Virus record (IMG/VR): IMGVR_UViG_3300024264_000022
Length of the DNA: 64,000 nt
Reading direction: 5' to 3' (one strand)
From: an uncultured virus (IMG/VR IMGVR_UViG_3300024264_000022)
Lineage: Duplodnaviria; Heunggongvirae; Uroviricota; Caudoviricetes
Position numbers and translations under genes: made by a program. The first letter of the stretch is position 1. Every line of letters begins with the position of its first letter. This document shows positions 1,322 to 55,962 of this stretch, piece after piece. A model generated the notes under the pieces. The model was not told the DNA's origin. It worked only from the letters and a program-made list of their open reading frames with translations, and searched no databases.

Positions 1322-2101
1322 CTATTTTCGTATAATATCGTCTTCCCTTGTGCTGGAACCATATTGGATTTCAACGATTCGCAACGATTCGCTAGTCTCA
1401 TTTGCAAGTCTATGCCATTGTTCTCTGTTAATATGTAAATTATCAAACATTTTAAACGTTCCAAGTAAGTCTTCTCGTTTATCTGCACCGTCACCAATTG
1501 TATAAACAGTAGCCTTACCACTTGAAATGAACCAATGTTCAGCTCTTTCTTGATGTTTCTGCATTGATAAAGACTTGCCAGGCTCAACAATTAACTCTTT
1601 TACTTTTACAATGCCACTATCATTATGTAATACTTTATAGTGACCCCAATCTCTCTCCGTTGTACTGGTGACCCAATTTTCAAGTATGTTAGATGAGGAG
1701 TTAGATTTGGTAGAACCACCTACAGCAGATTCAAATTTAATCCAATCATCACTTTTAAAGTATTCAATCTCTGGTATATTGTCATTGTTTCTATCTCCAC
1801 CATTTGCAAATATAATATCTGCTAGTGGATAAAACTTCTTTACTTTTAGAATTGCGTCAATAGCTGTATCGTCATAGTCATCAAAATTGATAACATTGTC
1901 TACCGATTTTAGATTAAATAAGACTTCTCTTCTCTCGTAGAATGGTAAAAAGGATTTACCTTTTTTTCTGGTCAACCACTCATCTGAATTCAGACCTACA
2001 ATCAATACCTCACCTAGTGCTTTGGCACACTTTAGGTATTCTAAATGTCCTGAATGTAAGGGGTCAAATCCACCTGTTGCGATTACGACTCTGTGTTTCA
2101 T
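1322..2101 (-). CDS. Cytidylyltransferase-like (HIGH) domain fused to a mannose-6-phosphate isomerase-type cupin
   Basis: GGFDPLHSGH and FANGGDR motifs; C-terminal RDWGHY...SLSMQKHQERAEHW...IVEIQYG cupin signature. Confidence 0.85.
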   Translation of the reverse strand: MKHRVVIATGGFDPLHSGHLEYLKCAKALGEVLIVGLNSDEWLTRKKGKSFLPFYERREVLFNLKSVDNVINFDDYDDTAIDAILKVKKFYPLADIIFANGGDRNNDNIPEIEYFKSDDWIKFESAVGGSTKSNSSSNILENWVTSTTERDWGHYKVLHNDSGIVKVKELIVEPGKSLSMQKHQERAEHWFISSGKATVYTIGDGADKREDLLGTFKMFDNLHINREQWHRLANETSESLRIVEIQYGSSTREDDIIRK

Positions 2102-2424
2102 CTGTTGTCACCAGAGCCACCAATTACGCCTCTTGCCTGTCTGTCTTTTAGTTTTACGATATTATTGTTAGCAATGTCGGAAAGCTTAAACCCAATATCA
2201 TCAGCCAATATACTGATATACCAAAGGCAATCGCCAATTTCAGAGGATAACGCTTCACGATAATCCTTATTGTTCTCATATCCGTCTCTTAATAGTTTCT
2301 TTACTTTGTTCGCTACTTCGCCTGCTTCACCGGCAAGGCCTAGAGCTGGATATAATACAGCGTGTTTCTTGTCGTAAATTGCTGTTGACTTAGCTAATTT
2401 TTGATATTCGTCAAATGAATTCAT
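2098..2424 (-). CDS. mazG: MazG-like NTP pyrophosphohydrolase
   Basis: YPALGLAGEAGEVANKVKK...EIGDCLWY...GSGDNR. Confidence 0.9.
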   Translation of the reverse strand: MNSFDEYQKLAKSTAIYDKKHAVLYPALGLAGEAGEVANKVKKLLRDGYENNKDYREALSSEIGDCLWYISILADDIGFKLSDIANNNIVKLKDRQARGVIGGSGDNR

Positions 2425-47159: not shown

Positions 47160-49067
47160 TTAGCTTCCTTTTACTTTAGCGGCAAGGTCTTTGTCTGCCC
47201 CACCCCAAGTTCCACTTGATTTAGTTATAAATGAATTTACTCTAGCAAACGCCCATTGGTGTTGACTAGCCCCAGGTCTATGTCCACCTTTCCAGGCAGC
47301 CATTCCTCTATCAAATACTTTCTTTAGAATACCATATGGCATTCCAGATTTCTCTGCTTTATTTTTTAATCCTTCAATCGCTTCATACATTTCTTTTGCA
47401 GGATGATTTTTGTTTTCAGTTTTTACTTTCTTCTGAAGCTTCGTATCAGTCTCAAACTTTTTACCATAAGCTTCTTTAAATTTCTTCTTAGGTTTCTCAT
47501 CATCTTTATCGTAAGCGTCTTCTTCGTTTTTGTTCTTAGGTTCTTTATAACCATTTGCGAAAGCAGCCTTTCTTTGAGCGTCTGAAGCAAAACCTTCGTT
47601 AGTTCTTTGTAGTACTTTTTGAACATCTGGATGGTCTGATAATCCTTTTGCAAGTTTCTCAATTGCTTTAATAGCACCTGTCATATTGCCACCTTTGTAT
47701 CTCTTATCGTTTGCAATACCGTATGCCATTTTGATTTGTTGTGAAGTAAAGCCTTCTGAAATAACTTCTTCTTTTACTTCTTTCTTTTGTTTGTCTCTTA
47801 ATATCTTTTGTGCTAATCCAACTTGTAATGGAACTTCTCCTGTATCAGGATTTGGTTCTGGTTTGATTGCTTTATTCTTTTCGTTTTCTAATTTTGTTTT
47901 TAACAAAGTTATCTGGTCTTTAAGAGCGTCTACATCAACTTTAGGTTCATCTTTCTTCTCTTTCTTCAAGTCTTTAAACTTAATCTTACCAGATTCAACT
48001 TCACCATTTTCTGTTTCTTCTGTAAACTTAACTGGTGCTAATACCGTACCGTGTGTTTTCGGGTCTAGTACTACCATCATTTCTTGTCCTGGTGTAGTCT
48101 TCTTATAATCTTTATTAATTTTTTTGAAATTTGCTTTACTGATTTCAACAGGACCTTTACCAGAATATTTGTAATCTCTTCCAGCAAGTACTGCTTCTTC
48201 AATACTTTCAGTCTTTAAGTGAGACCTAGTTGCTAATTGCATATCTAGTATCTTTCTCATATTACCTTTTAGTTCAATACCACCAGGTACATCTGATACT
48301 TTTAGACCGTGTTGTTTTGCAAGTGAAACCATATTTGATTTCTCTTTTTCATTTGTGAAACCTTTAATAGTTCCTGTGCCTTCGTGTAATTCGTCTTCTT
48401 CTTTAGTTAGTATTCTAGTGTCTGGGAAGTTATCCATTACTTTTTTATGGATTGCTTCTACATCTTTTGCACTATCAATTCTAACTTCTGAACCAGATTT
48501 GTGAATTTCTCCACCACCTGTTTTACCTTTAAACATATTTGCAATCTTACTTGCCTCGCCACCGTTCTTTGCCATATACTCTACATATTCAGTATATTCT
48601 AAAATAACTTGGTCCCAAGACTTGTTTTCAAATGCTGAAAGTTTTACACCTTGTGGTACTTTGATACCTTTGGATATCATACGACTAACTGCCATTGCTG
48701 AAATAAAAGGAATGTCTGCTTTGAAGAGTTTAGGAAGTTGTGCGTCTGCAATTTTGTCAAAGATGTTTCTTAACTGATTTGCTCTTGCGATAGATATTCT
48801 CTTACCTGCAAGGTCAGCATATTCTGCTTTTAACTTTTTGATTTGTTGGTCTGTAAATTCAACCAGTTGTTCTTCCTTGATGTCTTCTTCACCTAGAATA
48901 GTTTTAACGGTTGCAACAGGCAACTTCATTTGTTTTGCAATTGCTTCAGCTGATTTACCTTGGTCAAAAAGAGTAGCAATTGTCTTCATCTTGCCTTCGT
49001 CAATCTGAATATCGTTTGCCCACACCTCTTCTAGTGCTTCTCTCATTGTTTGTGTATATCTTGTCAT
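47160..49067 (-). CDS. Multi-module probable internal head polyprotein, C-terminal DUF5824-like domain
   Basis: Short modules separated by hydrophobic-x-E sites; C-terminal LK.KA.KSG....L..V..RG.AAW..GHRPG...QWA.ARVNSF. Confidence 0.6.
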   Translation of the reverse strand: MTRYTQTMREALEEVWANDIQIDEGKMKTIATLFDQGKSAEAIAKQMKLPVATVKTILGEEDIKEEQLVEFTDQQIKKLKAEYADLAGKRISIARANQLRNIFDKIADAQLPKLFKADIPFISAMAVSRMISKGIKVPQGVKLSAFENKSWDQVILEYTEYVEYMAKNGGEASKIANMFKGKTGGGEIHKSGSEVRIDSAKDVEAIHKKVMDNFPDTRILTKEEDELHEGTGTIKGFTNEKEKSNMVSLAKQHGLKVSDVPGGIELKGNMRKILDMQLATRSHLKTESIEEAVLAGRDYKYSGKGPVEISKANFKKINKDYKKTTPGQEMMVVLDPKTHGTVLAPVKFTEETENGEVESGKIKFKDLKKEKKDEPKVDVDALKDQITLLKTKLENEKNKAIKPEPNPDTGEVPLQVGLAQKILRDKQKKEVKEEVISEGFTSQQIKMAYGIANDKRYKGGNMTGAIKAIEKLAKGLSDHPDVQKVLQRTNEGFASDAQRKAAFANGYKEPKNKNEEDAYDKDDEKPKKKFKEAYGKKFETDTKLQKKVKTENKNHPAKEMYEAIEGLKNKAEKSGMPYGILKKVFDRGMAAWKGGHRPGASQHQWAFARVNSFITKSSGTWGGADKDLAAKVKGS

Positions 49068-49081
49068 CTTATATTTCTCTC

Positions 49082-49363
49082 CTAAAATTCCTTTATTTCT
49101 ATTATTAGTCTACCTTCACCTTTGTGTACTCTATGAAATGTTTCCTTTGGTATTTCAAAAACATCTCCTACTTTCATAATGACTGGGAGTTTATTATCCA
49201 TTTGTAATTTCCAATTAACTCCAGCAATAATTCTTATCGTTCTATTTCGTCTATCTCGGTGCCAAACTAAATTCTCTTCGTTGGCGTCTTGTCCGAAACT
49301 TCGTTGAAAGAAATCGTCCGTTTTTGTTTCGTCCGGTCTTTCATCATAAAATTCCATTGTCAA
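49082..49363 (-). CDS. Small cupin-like protein
   Basis: LVWHRD...W.LQ.DN..P...IPK..FHR..KG. Confidence 0.6.
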   Translation of the reverse strand: MTMEFYDERPDETKTDDFFQRSFGQDANEENLVWHRDRRNRTIRIIAGVNWKLQMDNKLPVIMKVGDVFEIPKETFHRVHKGEGRLIIEIKEF

Positions 49364-49366
49364 CTC

Positions 49367-49906
49367 CTACCAGTAAAAGTTACCCCCACCCGATAGTCCT
49401 AATGACTTCGCATAACGAGGTAAGTTGCAAGCCCAATAGGCAGCACTTGTTTTATCTTTTTGTTGGTCGCACTTATGACGAGCAGCAAAAGATTTTCTGG
49501 CTTGTTTGTCGTTTAACTTAACTCTTAAACCAGTAGTGTCTCCCCAAGTAACCTTCTTAATCTTATCTCCGTCTTTTACAAAAACATAAAACTTTTTAGG
49601 TCCACCTTTTTTTGGTTTATTTAAAGGCGGATTCTTTTCGTCTTCTTCTTGTATCGGACAATCTAAAGGTACTTTCATACCTTCATATTCTGCAAATTCT
49701 CCAATGTCTGTTTCTAATAAAGTTCTATCCCATTCACTTTCGCATTGTAATAGACCTTCATTAAACATATGTCTTGCTTCTCTAAACAAGGCATAAAACT
49801 CTTCGCTATGTACTCTATATATGTTCTCAGCTAGAGGTATGCTATTCTCAATATGATAGTTTAACGAGACCGTTATCTTATCTGCATAATCACTAAATCT
49901 TAACAT
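49367..49906 (-). CDS. Conserved hypothetical protein
   Basis: MLRFSDY start; KKFYV.VK...KV..GD...RKSFAARHKC...A.YW.C. Confidence 0.65.
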   Translation of the reverse strand: MLRFSDYADKITVSLNYHIENSIPLAENIYRVHSEEFYALFREARHMFNEGLLQCESEWDRTLLETDIGEFAEYEGMKVPLDCPIQEEDEKNPPLNKPKKGGPKKFYVFVKDGDKIKKVTWGDTTGLRVKLNDKQARKSFAARHKCDQQKDKTSAAYWACNLPRYAKSLGLSGGGNFYW

Positions 49907-52817
49907 ATTCTTTAAAAGATTGTACTTTCAATCTCTCCTCCATTTTTTTCACAGCGTCATTCAATTCTACTTGATACTCTTCTCCGTATCTCTTCTTATA
50001 TTTATCAATAGTCTCACTTGAAGAAGCCCATTTCTGTATATCTTCTTGGTTTATTGTCTCTGGACTTGTTTCTGCACGCTGTCCTGGGGTTACAATTTTA
50101 GTATGGTCTGCATAATCTTTACCTATTTCATAAGATTCCTTACCATACATCTGTTGATATTTCTTCGTATGTACACTAGTAGTTGTCTTTGCGTCTTTAT
50201 CTCCTGGTGCAGCTTTGTAATCTTTATCGTTATCTGACTTCTTATATTTTTGTTTTGAAAAGTGTTTTGCTCTTTTTTCTTTTTCACTTTTCTTCATATC
50301 TTTGTAATACTTTTTAGGTTGTGTACCTTTTTTAGTTTTTACATCTTTATCTTGTGGTAATTTCTTACCGTATTCTTCATTCATTTTGACTTCCGTTTCT
50401 GATACTGCTTCAAAACCATAGTCTACATTTAAATTAATTTCGTGTAATTTAGTTTCATCTATGTTAGTCTGTGGAATACAATTCCATATCCAACATTTAT
50501 GTAAGTTAGAATTATTGTCTTCTAATACAACATAGTTTGTACTTCTACGAATTACTTTACCTGTAATCTCTTGTTCTTGGTCTTCAACACTATCGTTTAT
50601 GTTAAATAGTTGTTCACGGATATACAAGTCTCTTAAATGCCATTTAGTAAAGCTTTCAACACTAGCGATAGGTTGATATGTTCCGATACCTGGTCCAGTA
50701 TAACCTGCAGCCAAGTTCATTCCTTTTCTAATTAATCCAAATAGTTTATCTTTGTCTCTAAAAGATGTAGGTAGACCTTGCTTAAAAGATTTAAGGTCAT
50801 TAGATTGAGCCGCAGCTCTCATTTTACTTGCTGACATTCCCATAGCGCCTTCAGCGTCTGGGTCTCTTTCGCCAGCAGATACGATATTGATTTTATCAAA
50901 CTCGTAATTTGTTCCTCTTGCTTGTACACCGTTGTACTTGTTTAGTAGTGTTTCAAATTCTCTTACTCTATCTGAACCAACTACCATTGTTATTTGATTT
51001 GCTTTTCCATTTAATTTATTGATGACTTCAATAGCTGTTCTTGCACCTGCAATTTGTTTTATCTTGCTTGAGTGTCTAGGGAACATAGATTTCATAACTC
51101 TAATCTTGTCAGCAACTTTCAATGGATTTTTCTTTGGGTCTTGCGAACCACTTGGCACAATGAGATAATCATTTGCACCTACAGACGCCACTTTGTTAAT
51201 TAACTTTTCGTGGCCTATCGTTGGTGGATTAAATCTACCAAATGTAAATGCGATATGTTTTTTAGGTGTGCCTACTGCTTCAGTTTTTAGACTATCAATT
51301 TCTTTATCGGTAACTATACCGTCATCTAAAATCTTCTTGCACTTCTTAAAGAAAGTAATGTAATGATATTTCTCTAACATCTTATAGATTACATTTTTAG
51401 GTAATCTGTTTTTAATACTATACTTTCTGATTTCGTCTGGCGACATATCTGTATCAAACGCACTTCTTCTTTCTGCGTCAACACCGTCACCAATCTTTAT
51501 TATGTCCTCTATATCATTTTCTATTTCTTCTAACTTACTCTCTACTCTTGCTTGTAAGTTTTCTATATCGTCAGGACTTAATTCTTTTAATTCGTCATAG
51601 TCAACAATGTCTCTTTTTAGTTCACCTTTGACTACATCTATTTCTTGTACTTTCTTATTGAAGTCAGCAATATAATCATCAATATTAAAAGTAAAATCTT
51701 CAGGTCTTTTAACAAATACATTCCTTGTAATTGAAAATACTGCGTCTGCTTTTTTCTCTTGTTCTTTATATGTTGCTTCATCGGTTACAAAATAATAGTT
51801 AATAGGATGTTTTGTACCAGGTATTAATTTACCTTGTATGTTATTTGGATTCTTTGATGAAAGGTATTCTAAAGATAGTCTTTCTCTTTCTGCAACTCTT
51901 TCACTTTCAGGAACATCAAATAATACATTGATGTCTAGGTCTGCGTCATTTCTATATCTATGTGTTAGAATAGAACCAATCAAACCATACTTAATAACTG
52001 GAAATTCTTTTTCAAATACTTTGATTTGGTCTTGTATTTGTTTTACTACACTTGCTTTTATTTTAGGATTATTTGTATCTGCATTATCAAATACAGCAGG
52101 TGCATATGTTTTTCTAGGAATGTCAATAATACTTTCCTGAATATCTACCATATTGATTAACTTATCTGCAATCTTTACAGAAGTTGTATGGTCAGACGGA
52201 TAGTGCCAACCTGCAACTACTCTACCGTAACCACATTCATCAGCAAGTTCTATTAAATTTTCTTTATGTTTAGGATATAATTTACCATAGTATTCTGCAA
52301 TCAATCTACTTTGTAGACTATGACCAGATGGATATGCTGGTGTCTTCATACTATCAGAAATTAATTCCATACTATCAAAATCCATATTCATTTCTTTTGC
52401 AAGTTCATATGGTCTTGGTCTTTGAAATTTGTTTTTGTAATGTCTAACTACACCACTACCTGCTTTCTTTAATTCAGATATATCTTTCTTATCATATTCT
52501 AAATTATATTTCATTAAGTATTCTTCAATACCATAAAATGTTTCTTGGTCGTGGTTCTTTACACTCTCTTTTACTGCACTAGTTCTTTTCTTAAATAGTT
52601 CAGTCATCATTTCTAATTCTCTTTTAGTTTCAGGACTATCATTTTCAGAAGGTGCTTTAACATCAATTTTCTTCCAGTCACCAACAATATTCTGTACAGG
52701 TTTGTCGTCAACTTTAGGGTGTGTCAAATCATTCAAGTCTTCTGCTACAGACTTGCACTTCTTTAATAGTTCTTTAACATAGTCCATTCTATGTTTCTTT
52801 TGAAAATTATCTGGCAT
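49893..52817 (-). CDS. Tri-enzyme protein: PAP2 phosphatase, Pol-beta-type nucleotidyltransferase and HIGH cytidylyltransferase-like domain
   Basis: KNKFQRPRP / YPSGH / GRVVAGWHYPSD; GSILTHRYRNDADLDINV; FGRFNPPTIGHEKL...MSASKMR. Confidence 0.8.
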   Translation of the reverse strand: MPDNFQKKHRMDYVKELLKKCKSVAEDLNDLTHPKVDDKPVQNIVGDWKKIDVKAPSENDSPETKRELEMMTELFKKRTSAVKESVKNHDQETFYGIEEYLMKYNLEYDKKDISELKKAGSGVVRHYKNKFQRPRPYELAKEMNMDFDSMELISDSMKTPAYPSGHSLQSRLIAEYYGKLYPKHKENLIELADECGYGRVVAGWHYPSDHTTSVKIADKLINMVDIQESIIDIPRKTYAPAVFDNADTNNPKIKASVVKQIQDQIKVFEKEFPVIKYGLIGSILTHRYRNDADLDINVLFDVPESERVAERERLSLEYLSSKNPNNIQGKLIPGTKHPINYYFVTDEATYKEQEKKADAVFSITRNVFVKRPEDFTFNIDDYIADFNKKVQEIDVVKGELKRDIVDYDELKELSPDDIENLQARVESKLEEIENDIEDIIKIGDGVDAERRSAFDTDMSPDEIRKYSIKNRLPKNVIYKMLEKYHYITFFKKCKKILDDGIVTDKEIDSLKTEAVGTPKKHIAFTFGRFNPPTIGHEKLINKVASVGANDYLIVPSGSQDPKKNPLKVADKIRVMKSMFPRHSSKIKQIAGARTAIEVINKLNGKANQITMVVGSDRVREFETLLNKYNGVQARGTNYEFDKINIVSAGERDPDAEGAMGMSASKMRAAAQSNDLKSFKQGLPTSFRDKDKLFGLIRKGMNLAAGYTGPGIGTYQPIASVESFTKWHLRDLYIREQLFNINDSVEDQEQEITGKVIRRSTNYVVLEDNNSNLHKCWIWNCIPQTNIDETKLHEINLNVDYGFEAVSETEVKMNEEYGKKLPQDKDVKTKKGTQPKKYYKDMKKSEKEKRAKHFSKQKYKKSDNDKDYKAAPGDKDAKTTTSVHTKKYQQMYGKESYEIGKDYADHTKIVTPGQRAETSPETINQEDIQKWASSSETIDKYKKRYGEEYQVELNDAVKKMEERLKVQSFKEYVKI

Positions 52818-53481
52818 TTCTTTTCTTCGCTAGTTCTTGTTCTATCCATTTCTTTGCGACATAATTTTGAACAGGTTTTCTAACGAGTCCTCTAATTCGT
52901 GTGTAAACTTTGTTAAGTGTATCTTCACTTGCATTGTTATTATCAACTACAATCATACTACCAGTACCAAATAGATTTTGAAATCTACCTATATTACTTT
53001 GTACAACATTCCAACTCTTCGTTGCAATAGTTTCAGGTACGGTTCTAGTTCTAACTTTGTTTCTTTGTAATGCAACTTCTAAACTCGTATTTACAAACAT
53101 CATATAAGTATCGTAACCTAACATTCTTAACATACTTCTTTGTTTATTAATAATGTCATAGTCTCTACCTGTGGCGTCAATGACAAGACCTAATCTATTT
53201 CTAATATATAAGTCCATCTGGTCGCCTGTAATTTGTTTTGCTCTTGCTCTCAATGGGTCTCTAGCGTCTGCTTCTTTATCAGGCATTTTTAATGAGAGAC
53301 CTGCCTTCTTTAAATACATTTCAAATCTGACATCTGAATTAACTAATTTTAAACCCATACCAGCAGTTGTTCTATTGGTAACATAAGACTTACCAGAACC
53401 AGGACCACCTGCTAAAAAGAACGCTTTAAATATACCTGGGTCGTAAACGCCTTCTTGTATTATGTGTTTAAAAGTTTTCAT
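52807..53481 (-). CDS. Zeta-toxin-like P-loop kinase
   Basis: LAGGPGSGKS, VNSD, LVIDATG, ALQRN..R. Confidence 0.75.
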   Translation of the reverse strand: MKTFKHIIQEGVYDPGIFKAFFLAGGPGSGKSYVTNRTTAGMGLKLVNSDVRFEMYLKKAGLSLKMPDKEADARDPLRARAKQITGDQMDLYIRNRLGLVIDATGRDYDIINKQRSMLRMLGYDTYMMFVNTSLEVALQRNKVRTRTVPETIATKSWNVVQSNIGRFQNLFGTGSMIVVDNNNASEDTLNKVYTRIRGLVRKPVQNYVAKKWIEQELAKKRNAR

Positions 53482-53768
53482 ACTTTATATAGAGTATACT
53501 TTAAAGTTAACTCTTCTCCTTTTTTTATATCTTCTAATGTTTGTATATAATATTTTCCATCAACTTCTATCTTTTGACAATTAGGTTTATCACTATGATT
53601 TAAAAAACCACCAAGTGGTGTTCTATAAATTTCTCTACCCATAGTCAAATGAGAGATACCTAAATCTGTCATCTTATCAATCGTTGCTGTTGCAAATAAA
53701 CCAAAACCTTCTATTGGCGATAACTTTATTGTTATGTTATCAGGTAAAGGTCTATACTTATCTGTCAT
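53478..53768 (-). CDS. SET domain protein
   Basis: SPIEG.GLFA, FLNHS..PN, DIKKGEELT..Y. Confidence 0.85.
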   Translation of the reverse strand: MTDKYRPLPDNITIKLSPIEGFGLFATATIDKMTDLGISHLTMGREIYRTPLGGFLNHSDKPNCQKIEVDGKYYIQTLEDIKKGEELTLKYTLYKV

Positions 53769-54075
53769 CTCCACTACCTTGTATCTTGTTTCTTTCTTGT
53801 CTGTCTTTTAATTTTTCTAAATTTAATTGTGCGATTGTATCTAAATCAATATCTAAATCTCTCGCAAGTGCTGATATGTACCATAACACATCACCTAATT
53901 CTTTTTTCATATCTTCTTTAAATGTAGGACTTGCACCGTCTCTAATATTCTTTTTAACTTTTTCTGCTACTTCACCTGCTTCACCACATAATCCTAATGC
54001 AGGATAAGTTACCTTACTTGCAAGTGGATAAATTGCTGTGTTAGCAGCTAGAGTTTGGTATTCATTAAATTGCAT
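53758..54075 (-). CDS. mazG: MazG-like NTP pyrophosphohydrolase (second copy)
   Basis: YPALGLCGEAGEVAEKVKK...ELGDVLWY...GSGDDR. Confidence 0.9.
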   Translation of the reverse strand: MQFNEYQTLAANTAIYPLASKVTYPALGLCGEAGEVAEKVKKNIRDGASPTFKEDMKKELGDVLWYISALARDLDIDLDTIAQLNLEKLKDRQERNKIQGSGDDR

Positions 54076-54664
54076 TTTGTATCTCCTTTATAATATCTTT
54101 CGCAATATCGCCTGCTTCTTTTCCTTCAGCTTTGATAGAAATGAAACCTGGTTTTTTTCTGTAGTGTTCAATCGCCGGTCCGGTTTCTTTGTTGTAGAGA
54201 TTGATTCTATCAGTAATAATATCTGGCTTATCATCTTTTCTTCCTCTCTTCGTAAGTCTTCTAATCACTTCTTCTTTACTTACATCAAGGTATACAACAA
54301 CATCATAATTGATACTATTCTTTTCCATATCTCTTACTTGTTGCATATATCTAGGATAACCATCTAGTACATAACCTTTACTAGCATCCTTTTCTGTTAA
54401 TGCGTTCTTCACTAATTTTAAAACTATATCGTTAGGTGCAAACTTACCTTTGTCTAATAAATCTTTAATCATTTGTCCATCAGAACCACCTTTGTCAATT
54501 TCTTTTCTTAATAATCCACCTGGGTAAATATGTTTAATACTAAAGTGTCTTGTAATGTATTCACTATAAGTTGATTTACCACTTCCTGGACCACCCATTA
54601 TAATAACTCTTGTTTGTTTTGCTTCATTCAGGTATGCCGTCAAATATGATTTAAAAGTTTCCAT
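54065..54664 (-). CDS. adk: Adenylate kinase, short LID
   Basis: GGPGSGKST, GYVLDGYPR, RGRKDD. Confidence 0.88.
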   Translation of the reverse strand: METFKSYLTAYLNEAKQTRVIIMGGPGSGKSTYSEYITRHFSIKHIYPGGLLRKEIDKGGSDGQMIKDLLDKGKFAPNDIVLKLVKNALTEKDASKGYVLDGYPRYMQQVRDMEKNSINYDVVVYLDVSKEEVIRRLTKRGRKDDKPDIITDRINLYNKETGPAIEHYRKKPGFISIKAEGKEAGDIAKDIIKEIQNAI

Positions 54665-54665
54665 A

Positions 54666-55880
54666 TTATCCTTTCACCCAATCTTTAGCAATCGTAAAGT
54701 TTGCTCTACTAAATTCTAATCTGTCTACGAGTTTAACTACATTACCAATCTTATCTGTTGCAACATAACCTTCAGGTGATGTTACCTTAAAACCAGTATC
54801 GGTTCTTAAAAAGTGTCCGATAGATTGTATCTGTGCTATTTTTCGTACTATAATGTTTTTACAATTCTGTAATGTGATGTATGTTGCAATGGCGAAATAT
54901 AATGATTGTTTATTTCTTTGAATAAATTTTATATTATCTGCTTTTGCTTTAATGTAAGGTGCTTTACCTTTTTCTGTTTTTCTACTATCTATTTCTTTGT
55001 CAATGAAATTTGTATAGTATGGTTCAAAACCATCTACTAGTGATTTAACACTACCCATACCTTGTGTACCTCTAACGATACTATTGAAATATGTTTTAAT
55101 TTTCATACCTACGCCTAACTCGTCATTACTATCAAACTGATTTAACATAGGTCCTGCTTTTTGTAAACTACCTTGTGCCATTCTTAACTGAGCATTGAAT
55201 TGTGAAACTTCAGCACGATTGAAACTTGCACTACCACTAGTGTCTTTGTATTCTGCACTTGGTACCCATACACTACCACTTCTGATTCCTTTAACATAAC
55301 CAAAGTTAGCATTTAAGCTATCCATTTTGTCACCAACATATTGTGTATGAAACACTATGCCCATTCTAGCACGAGCAATCTTACGACCGACAGCACTATT
55401 AACAGGCATAGCATATGTTATAGTATTAGGAGTAAAGGTAATCATTGATTGTCCGTCAATGTTATTCACTTTCTTATCTTCATTAGTAAAGAGACAATCA
55501 CCTTGGACAATGCCTCTTATACCTAATTTTTTCAATTCTCTTAATGCAACTTCTAATTTTGCACCAACACCACCTGGGTGATTTCTTCTTATGTCTGCTG
55601 AAGTGTAATTGATTTTAGGAGTTTTATTGAATACAGATTTTGTACCGACAAAGAATTTGCCGTTTTCAGGATTAGTTCCACATACTATCGCAGGAGCGCC
55701 GTCCCACTTAACGGTTACATTTACTCTATTGCTAACATTACCTGTTAACATTTTCTGCAAAGATTGTAAGAACGCTATTGCGTTTCTACCGCCTTTGGCA
55801 CCGTTATTAATTATTTCGTCTTCTAAATGCTCAAGGTGTGTGTTCGTACCCGAGCTAGAATATCCTTTAAAACTAAACAT
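54666..55880 (-). CDS. DUF6267-like protein, RNA-ligase-type nucleotidyltransferase candidate
   Basis: NTHLEHLED, TVKWDGAP (KxDG), QGD, EGYV...VKLVDR.EFS; TATAAATA at 55951-55958. Confidence 0.65.
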   Translation of the reverse strand: MFSFKGYSSSGTNTHLEHLEDEIINNGAKGGRNAIAFLQSLQKMLTGNVSNRVNVTVKWDGAPAIVCGTNPENGKFFVGTKSVFNKTPKINYTSADIRRNHPGGVGAKLEVALRELKKLGIRGIVQGDCLFTNEDKKVNNIDGQSMITFTPNTITYAMPVNSAVGRKIARARMGIVFHTQYVGDKMDSLNANFGYVKGIRSGSVWVPSAEYKDTSGSASFNRAEVSQFNAQLRMAQGSLQKAGPMLNQFDSNDELGVGMKIKTYFNSIVRGTQGMGSVKSLVDGFEPYYTNFIDKEIDSRKTEKGKAPYIKAKADNIKFIQRNKQSLYFAIATYITLQNCKNIIVRKIAQIQSIGHFLRTDTGFKVTSPEGYVATDKIGNVVKLVDRLEFSRANFTIAKDWVKG

Positions 55881-55962
55881 TTTTGTCCTTCATTTTTTCC
55901 ATATACAAATAAACTATCCATTAATATAAGTCTTCACTTCGTTGTGCTACTATTTATAAGTC

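Follow-up and report, generated by a model that had tools for sequence, protein, structure and literature searches.

The 64,000-nucleotide stretch analysed here (the window) comes from the uncultured virus record IMGVR_UViG_3300024264_000022 (Caudoviricetes). The contig, 72,890 bases long, is part of a T4-like phage genome and has genes for gp41, UvsX, gp46/47, gp55, gp32, gp59 and nrdAB. Its host is likely SAR11, because the adenylate kinase and peptide deformylase of the contig fit the pelagimyophage groups (PMC7029224). Among its genes is a minus-strand open reading frame (ORF) of 974 aa in which a PAP2 phosphatase, a Pol-beta superfamily nucleotidyltransferase (NTase) and a HIGH-superfamily nucleotidyltransferase follow one another behind a short leader (Table 1). 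The extent of this ORF, 49893-52817, was confirmed from the window sequence, and PAP2 and CTP_transf_like were both found in it above the Pfam cut-offs. The comparisons below suggest that its product is probably prohead cargo, cut by a gp21-type protease into enzymes that would be injected separately.

Table 1. Features of the 974-aa ORF and of its surroundings in the window.
Feature	Coordinates	Strand	Basis or remark
Modular ORF: leader, PAP2, Pol-beta NTase, HIGH, small beta module, basic module, C-terminal module	49893..52817	-	
N-terminal leader, aa 1-26, ending V-A-E26; degenerate M-x-x-F-K/R leader	52740..52817	-	putative targeting role
PAP2 phosphatase, aa 27-228, class A acid phosphatase type	52134..52739	-	Pfam, closest solved sequences, motifs
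Junction 1 Glu (E228), predicted gp21 site	52134..52136	-	last leader residue in stand-alone NTase homologues
Pol-beta superfamily NTase, aa 229-513, minimal-NTase core and helical bundle	51279..52133	-	model, Foldseek, VIA, conservation
Junction 2 Glu (E513), predicted gp21 site (L-x-x-E), insertion hot spot	51279..51281	-	equals leader-ending Glu of N-terminal HIGH proteins
HIGH-superfamily nucleotidyltransferase, aa 514-721, marine T4-like 'cytidyltransferase' (phrog_395/3041)	50655..51278	-	Pfam, PHROGs, profiles
Small conserved module, aa 722-803 (82 aa), behind HIGH	50409..50654	-	locus comparison
Basic module, aa 804-894 (27 K+R), and C-terminal module, aa 895-974	49896..50408	-	exchangeable among relatives
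QSFKEY tail, aa 966-971, overlapping the next gene's start	49905..49922	-	resembles the next gene's leader
Downstream 179-aa, cupin and 635-aa DUF5824 genes	47160..49906	-	in HTVC008M and Melnitz, their modules are part of the HIGH protein
P-loop kinase (AAA_33/Zeta-like), upstream, leader ending I-Q-E	52807..53481	-	Pfam; fused in frame to PAP2 via I-R-E/S in L011-L014
Small SET-domain protein in late operon	53478-53774	-	Pfam E 2.9e-11; this clade and a few other loci
Adenylate kinase, leader ending L-N-E	54065..54664	-	Pfam
DUF6267 (phrog_455), first gene of late operon	54666..55880	-	Pfam, PHROGs
Presumed T4-type late promoter TATAAATA, operon head	55951..55958	-	sequence evidence

An assembly artefact was ruled out as the origin of the fusion. 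Our locus set comprised 80 IMG/VR loci with the NTase, of which 72 hold complete NTase ORFs and eight run off contig ends; since PAP2, NTase and HIGH are joined in 14 of the 72 (10 plain, four with an extra kinase in front), the arrangement clearly recurs. It also recurs across sequencing runs, as 20 of 24 listed runs, from 12 studies, contain the stretch wholly or partly (six possibly its source, six recorded as RNA). One RNA-library contig (record 12) covers both junctions, which is no proof of transcription. Seventeen diverged fused homologues (rows < 80% identical to one another and to the query, taken from the 50 full-length rows of alignment A2) all share the catalytic residues checked in the three modules, apart from E650 (94%). 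The loss of such residues, which the sequence-only reading had named as evidence that would speak against its polyprotein proposal, was thus not seen.

The PAP2 module matches its Pfam family at aa 126-214 (E 5.9e-9, above cut-off) and carries the motifs K128-x6-RP, PSGH (163-166) and R199-x5-H205-x3-D209, all kept in 17/17, with K128, R135, S164, H166, R199, H205 and D209 as catalytic residues. Class A non-specific acid phosphatases (PhoN/PhoC) share all three motifs and are its nearest solved sequences (PDB sequence search, E 4e-8). Unlike them, the module is fused into putative phage cargo and falls far under the PhoC/PhoN equivalog cut-off (NCBIfam NF045654; 19.8 of 430 bits). We predict, less firmly than the family assignment, a broad nucleotide phosphomonoesterase. 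In relatives PAP2 also stands alone behind Glu-ending leaders or is joined to the 179-aa module. A parallel with NARP1-AP was considered and rejected: the available account of its phosphatase describes a Macro domain and does not mention PAP2, and Pfam and PHROG scans found no Adps-like gene in the cluster.

The HIGH module matches CTP_transf_like at aa 525-626 (E 2.3e-9, above cut-off), and PHROGs places the C-terminal half of the ORF in the 'cytidyltransferase' families 395 and 3041. It contains GRFNPP-T533-x-x-H536, GSDR (614-617) and SASKMR (662-667); the superfamily motifs (H/T)-x-G-H and S-x-S/T-x-x-R are invariant in the 17 HIGH members aligned, three cultured phages included. The named proteins of cyanophages and pelagiphages (phrog_395, phrog_3041; Syn9 gp184, HTVC008M gp130) resemble it in sequence (37-45% identical) and in gene position, after gp41, but the PAP2 and Pol-beta modules are absent from theirs. 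While a HIGH enzyme typical of T4-like marine phages is therefore present, as had been proposed, its assignment as a cytidylyltransferase was not upheld: no glycerol-3-phosphate cytidylyltransferase profile was among the 12 families matched by HIGH, and NAD-type adenylyltransferases fit better. The nearest profiles of the phage proteins are NAD/CoA adenylyltransferases (NadR in 17, NadD in 14 and CoaD in 13 of the 17 members), all far under cut-off; the member identical to the window scored 26.8 of 112 bits for NadD, 23.6 of 341 for NadR and 19.1 of 103 for CoaD. PDB sequence matches were weak. Adenylylation of a phosphomonoester, with conversion of NMN/NaMN to NAD as the single best guess, is offered tentatively.

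The match of the Pol-beta module to NTP_transf_2 (aa 264-317, E 9e-4) scores 20 bits, just below the 21-bit cut-off. Conserved residues are G281, S282, D293, D295, H337, N340, R450, P473, N475, K479, E482, Y484 and Y486, and over 116 distant members the core formed by GS (281-282) and D293-x-D295 is retained at 100%, 91%, 97% and 99% for its four residues in turn. The sequence-only reading had counted three complete catalytic sets. This is borne out for PAP2, HIGH and the GS/DxD of the NTase, but the third Pol-beta carboxylate on the next core strand is absent: the position, assigned by alignment and secondary structure, is N340, with Asn in 75%, Gln in 16% and Glu in 6% of the distant members. 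In LinB and kanamycin NTase the catalytic base is supplied from the helical bundle. By analogy, the bundle of the phage enzyme, which has conserved acids (D394, D406, E482), may do the same.

A first model of the NTase, from a shallow alignment, had a pLDDT of 70.7 and no Foldseek match at E 0.001, while a model from a 103-sequence alignment reached 87.7 and showed a self-contained fold beginning directly after E228, with low confidence at its flanks due partly to truncation. With this model LinB, ANT(9), AadA and ANT(4') took the top Foldseek ranks (LinB E 3.5e-4, TM 0.24, rmsd 16.5), and VIA aligned the core with 1ylq (Z 8.0, rmsd 3.0, 90 residues) and 2rff (Z 7.2, rmsd 3.4, 102 residues). 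A wide VIA search gave mostly generic helical bundles and did not list CCA-adding enzymes, which excludes nothing. Likeness to CCA-adding enzymes or poly(A) polymerases consisted of weak MTPAP palm and Trf4 matches ranked under ANT/MNT; the MntA profile reached 17 of 60 bits in two homologues, and sequence matches of the module searches to STING and Kelch were dismissed as short chance matches. The module shares with LinB, ANT(4')/ANT(9)/AadA and MntA a GS-x10-DxD core and a C-terminal helical bundle, but differs from them in its low identity (9-16%), the lack of a whole-chain superposition, the Asn at the third carboxylate and a motif of its own, P-x-N-x-x-Y-K-x-L-E-x-Y-x-Y. AMP transfer to a protein or small-molecule hydroxyl group, the type of reaction that these enzymes carry out, is slightly favoured on this analogy; extension of RNA 3' ends is distinctly unlikely.

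The NTase family is large, with 873 representatives at < 50% identity (E 0.001). Its nearest Atlas clusters are 92-100% viral, and in BFVD 11 uncharacterised phage fold relatives rank above a HIGH-fragment match; tblastn with two queries found no match in 50,697 GenBank phage records. A second locus scan gave close relatives only, and one that started from a distant stand-alone NTase yielded no locus. Among 53 long proteins scanned, distant NTases are joined to Tad6, KptA/PARP-like, DUF5662 and polynucleotide-kinase domains (P0336, P0337, P0310, P0327, P0377). Tad6 blocks Thoeris (10.64898/2026.01.28.702374). These fusions suggest anti-defence cargo chains in other phage groups.

In the remainder of the ORF, the conserved 82-aa module, which by eye looks SH3/KOW-like, always lies behind HIGH; the C-terminal third is charged, poorly conserved and punctuated by Glu, its last module beginning after the conserved E894. 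The QSFKEY tail, earlier read as targeting-like, does lie at the C-terminus, but we reject it as a conserved targeting signal of the family: an SFK[ED]Y tail terminates five of 39 distinct C-terminus/next-gene pairs, and QSFKEY itself is confined to this clade and L053. It may have a local role, and appears to be left over from the leader of the gene that follows.

Comparison of the loci showed how these modules are exchanged. Of the 72 complete ORFs, 56 are NTase+HIGH+beta module and two NTase+HIGH, while 10 have PAP2, and four kinase and PAP2, in front. Fusions, losses and insertions occur at leader-ending Glu, including those that join kinase to PAP2 and adenylate kinase to kinase, so that the check for module swapping at the Glu sites, set beforehand, came out in favour of the polyprotein proposal. 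In P0246 the leader type of this clade sits directly on the NTase, so that PAP2 behaves as a cassette bounded by E26 and E228. On a quick tree built from 90 NTase modules, in which some leader-only rows may be truncated genes, at least 10 PAP2 gains or losses are required on starred branches; for three starred sister pairs, the loci used (L027, L048, L031) have their upstream kinase gene intact. The earlier view that the HIGH protein 'gained two more enzymes' agrees with cultured relatives that have HIGH without them, but PAP2 comes and goes repeatedly. A fixed three-step pathway is unlikely, with PAP2 absent from 58/72 complete ORFs and the NTase from all cultured phages searched; because both are optional, the three enzymes are more likely co-delivered cargo than one pathway. 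Four loci (L045, L046, L015, L062) carry the NTase-HIGH protein as more than one ORF, through either natural fission or sequencing error.

The junctions fall where the sequence-only reading had placed them, VDIQE/SIID ending at 228 and SLKTE/AVG at 513. Its claim that both follow the (I/L)xE preference of gp21 holds at E228 (I-Q-E) and fails at E513 (K-T-E, with Lys at P3 and Leu at P4), as it does at E26 (V-A-E). By itself (I/L)xE means little, since the protein contains 10 such sites, while hydrophobic-x(1,2)-E-[A/S/G] occurs at only five, two of them the junctions. The position of the Glu is constant. It directly precedes S-I-I-D-I-P in 80/80 loci, and junction 1 has Glu in 128/129 distinct junctions, a hydrophobic P3 in 124 and strict (I/L)xE in 55. 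In a comparison of 320 sequences (312 containing the NTase module start), all 46 distinct PAP2-fused junctions have Glu at P1 and F, L, M or I at P3, while P2 and P4-P8 vary; several retain a complete internal leader (MKTFKTFIE). Where PAP2 is lacking, the protein opens with a short leader ending in the junction-1 Glu (MKKFREVIE, MRFKDYVLE), and the 116 distant NTase modules, many of them stand-alone with M-K-x-F leaders, have Glu (94%) and Ser (92%) at the seam. At junction 2, hydrophobic-x(1,2)-E-[A/S/G], a motif defined post hoc, is found in 104/114 distinct junctions vs 2083/31805 background windows (6.5%). Cultured HIGH proteins start with comparable leaders (Melnitz MKKFSEIIE/AR, Syn9 gp184 MKKFSAFLSE/AE), the Melnitz seam being E/A-R/K as at junction 2, and of the unrelated stretches inserted at this junction, some as long as about 150 residues, nearly all have, by eye, a Glu near both ends.

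Glu-ending leaders are not restricted to one kind of fold: they were seen in 25/25 distinct kinase N-termini, on most adenylate kinases and on stand-alone PAP2. That such leaders precede unrelated folds, and that kinase fusions join there, favours a processing site over a fold constraint. An M-x-x-F type leader was found in 113/134 PAP2-fused and 156/175 PAP2-less homologues, while the protein's own 26-aa leader is degenerate. These leaders resemble what we take to be the T4 leader consensus.

The genomic setting is that of a late operon. The element TATAAATA, presumably a T4-type late promoter, lies 71 bases before DUF6267 and heads the gene run holding the 974-aa ORF; with gp55 in the window, the sequence indicates late expression. 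Within this cluster Glu-ending leaders occur on 7/17 ORFs, vs 3/83 elsewhere (Fisher p 1e-4, pattern post hoc). Genes next to the ORF encode nucleotide enzymes (kinase, adenylate kinase, MazG, HAD phosphatase). A search of the 72.9-kb contig found no gp21; two of five related contigs have it, one with an 86% identical NTase (G001 with gp21, gp22 and gp23, G002 with gp21). In both relatives gp23 has F-M-x-E at residue 52, just before the region aligning with mature T4 gp23, which suggests a cut motif wider than L/I-x-E.

Among described systems the closest are the internal proteins IPI-IPIII and Alt of T4, which carry targeting leaders, are cut after L/I-X-E and are injected (PMC9026906, PMC9958956, PMC12373910, PMC7411985). 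The likeness lies in a short N-terminal leader that has Glu as its last residue and a hydrophobic P3, a late T4-like context and varied cargo behind a common leader. T4, however, has one inhibitor or enzyme per chain, trimmed at its ends, and a narrower cut motif, whereas the sequence here chains enzymes at internal leader-derived Glu. On this analogy the N-terminal leader is very probably a T4-type capsid-targeting sequence, and we think it fairly probable that the internal Glu are still cut. The polyprotein, made late from the TATAAATA-headed operon, would bind the prohead core by its leader and be cut by gp21 at E26, E228, E513 and perhaps E894. Pieces of a predicted 23.5, 33.2 and about 23-53 kDa would be ejected with the DNA and, judging from their folds and fusion partners, could immediately attack nucleotides, NAD precursors or proteins of host defence; by adding and removing nucleotide or phosphate groups, they would counter that defence within minutes of the start of infection. 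Maturation in the prohead, as the sequence-only reading proposed, is supported by inference from module swapping at Glu and conserved catalytic residues, although the strict motif on which it leaned fails at E513.

Virion proteomics offers some indirect support, in that cyanophage cytidylyltransferases and neighbours, likened here by name, were detected in virions of S-CREM2 (PMC10665884) and S-SZBM1 (PMC9146016). A conceptual precedent for the multi-enzyme chain is provided by the polyvalent proteins of phages and conjugative elements (PMC5512222), which combine disparate enzymes and have been proposed to be co-delivered with DNA and processed. Here the head protease would do the processing in trans, and Pfam and PHROG scans of the ORF did not find the polyvalent hub domains (metallopeptidase/MPTase, ArdC-N, MuF). 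The available passages of PMC7824862, PMC9503650, PMC4621102 and PMC7411985 give no account of the 974-aa protein, and our literature search, with most subscription papers and supplements outside its scope, returned no paper on the fusion, its NTase family or gp21-released enzyme chains.

Several observations weigh against a cleaved cargo. Besides the Lys at P3 of E513, 11/114 junction-2 sequences are hydrophobic only at P4 and 10 fit neither pattern; E513 sits, in the model, at the end of the NTase's last helix, and its conservation is ordinary (13/81 Glu are at least 90% conserved, and E513 ranks 102nd of 966 positions). Since E228 adjoins the conserved, ordered S-I-I-D start, it may be held by structure. 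Asp takes its place in 3% of the 116 distant modules, and in T4 IPIII an Asp at the cut position blocks processing (PMC9026906). The N-terminus of this clade departs from the canonical leader of the 113 PAP2-fused homologues, and Foldseek found no whole-NTase fold match (best TM about 0.24). Prohead proteases are described as trimming terminal propeptides or destroying scaffold (PMC9026906, PMC10052503), 13 of 14 cut sites in SPN3US being N-terminal and one C-terminal (PMC10052503). Finally, the S-CREM2 authors allow for co-purification (PMC10665884), the S-SZBM1 detection consists of two peptides (PMC9146016), and the virion passage for S-SCSM2R names no such enzyme (PMC12801897).

Much of this would fit a protein that is packaged but trimmed only at its ends, its internal Glu being fusion relics or needed for the fold of the next domain. 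A stop-loss fusion keeps the downstream leader automatically, E513 both departs from (I/L)xE and ends a helix, E228 is followed by a conserved, ordered S-I-I-D, the known substrates of prohead proteases lose only terminal pieces, and even a large fusion such as IPIII-beta-galactosidase is packaged and delivered by T4 (PMC9026906). We nevertheless consider it unlikely, as the rest of the leader decays in fused forms while the P1 Glu and hydrophobic P3 stay in 46/46, folds that are unrelated have this Glu in front of them, and inserts have a Glu on either side. Quite improbable is a late multi-enzyme that stays in the cytoplasm and serves nucleotide/NAD metabolism or RNA end repair together with its neighbours (kinase, adenylate kinase, MazG, HAD phosphatase, DUF6267). 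Such a role would suit the neighbouring nucleotide enzymes, the degenerate leader of this clade and virion detections that are possibly co-purification, but leaders are enriched in the gene cluster, nearly all stand-alone modules carry leader plus Glu, and cytidylyltransferase was detected in two cyanophage virion proteomes. That the protein is prohead core filler, mostly digested like gp22/gp67/gp68 with the enzymes as passengers, recalls the charged, poorly conserved, Glu-punctuated C-terminal third and the T4 core proteins cut into many pieces (PMC9958956, PMC9026906), but is highly improbable given catalytic residues of all three enzymes invariant in 17/17 and an architecture too variable for a scaffold.

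If the cleaved-cargo reading is right, the myophages that dominate the ocean would deliver a shifting assortment of preformed enzymes into the cell, with their head protease acting as a polyprotein protease, a role not described in the literature we found; it would also explain the 'cytidyltransferase' in cyanophage virion proteomes. The leader-plus-Glu rule would then let injected cargo be listed from sequence alone and candidate anti-defence enzymes, the Pol-beta family included, be flagged, and the cultured phages Melnitz, HTVC008M and Syn9 make the reading testable. A bolder form, which we hold to be possible though doubtful, is that marine T4-like phages share a protease-punctuated cargo grammar in which any enzyme is slotted between leader-derived Glu, carried by a single targeting signal and released by the head protease, and that the cut at E228 exposes S-I-I-D and so switches on a new AMP-transferase, confined to uncultured phages, that disarms host defences upon injection, beside the Tad6 and ADP-ribosyltransferase cargo of distant members. 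This would be a bacteriophage counterpart of RNA-virus polyproteins.

Other genes of the fragment deserve brief mention. Downstream, 47160-49067 (minus strand) encodes a second Glu-punctuated modular protein, ending in DUF5824. DUF6267 (54666-55880, minus strand), for which a PDB sequence search gave no match, has K-W-D-G, E-G and late Lys motifs that by eye look ATP-dependent ligase-like, and phrog_455 spans both DUF6267 and the HIGH domain. The same fragment holds two MazG-like genes (53758-54075 and 2098-2424, minus strand) and, at 1322-2101 of the window, a second HIGH-type enzyme (RfaE-like plus cupin). In locus L001 (5204-6697, minus strand), a 497-aa protein between regA and gp43, outside the cluster, appears by eye to combine a RimK ATP-grasp with a small protease behind an F-L-S-E leader.

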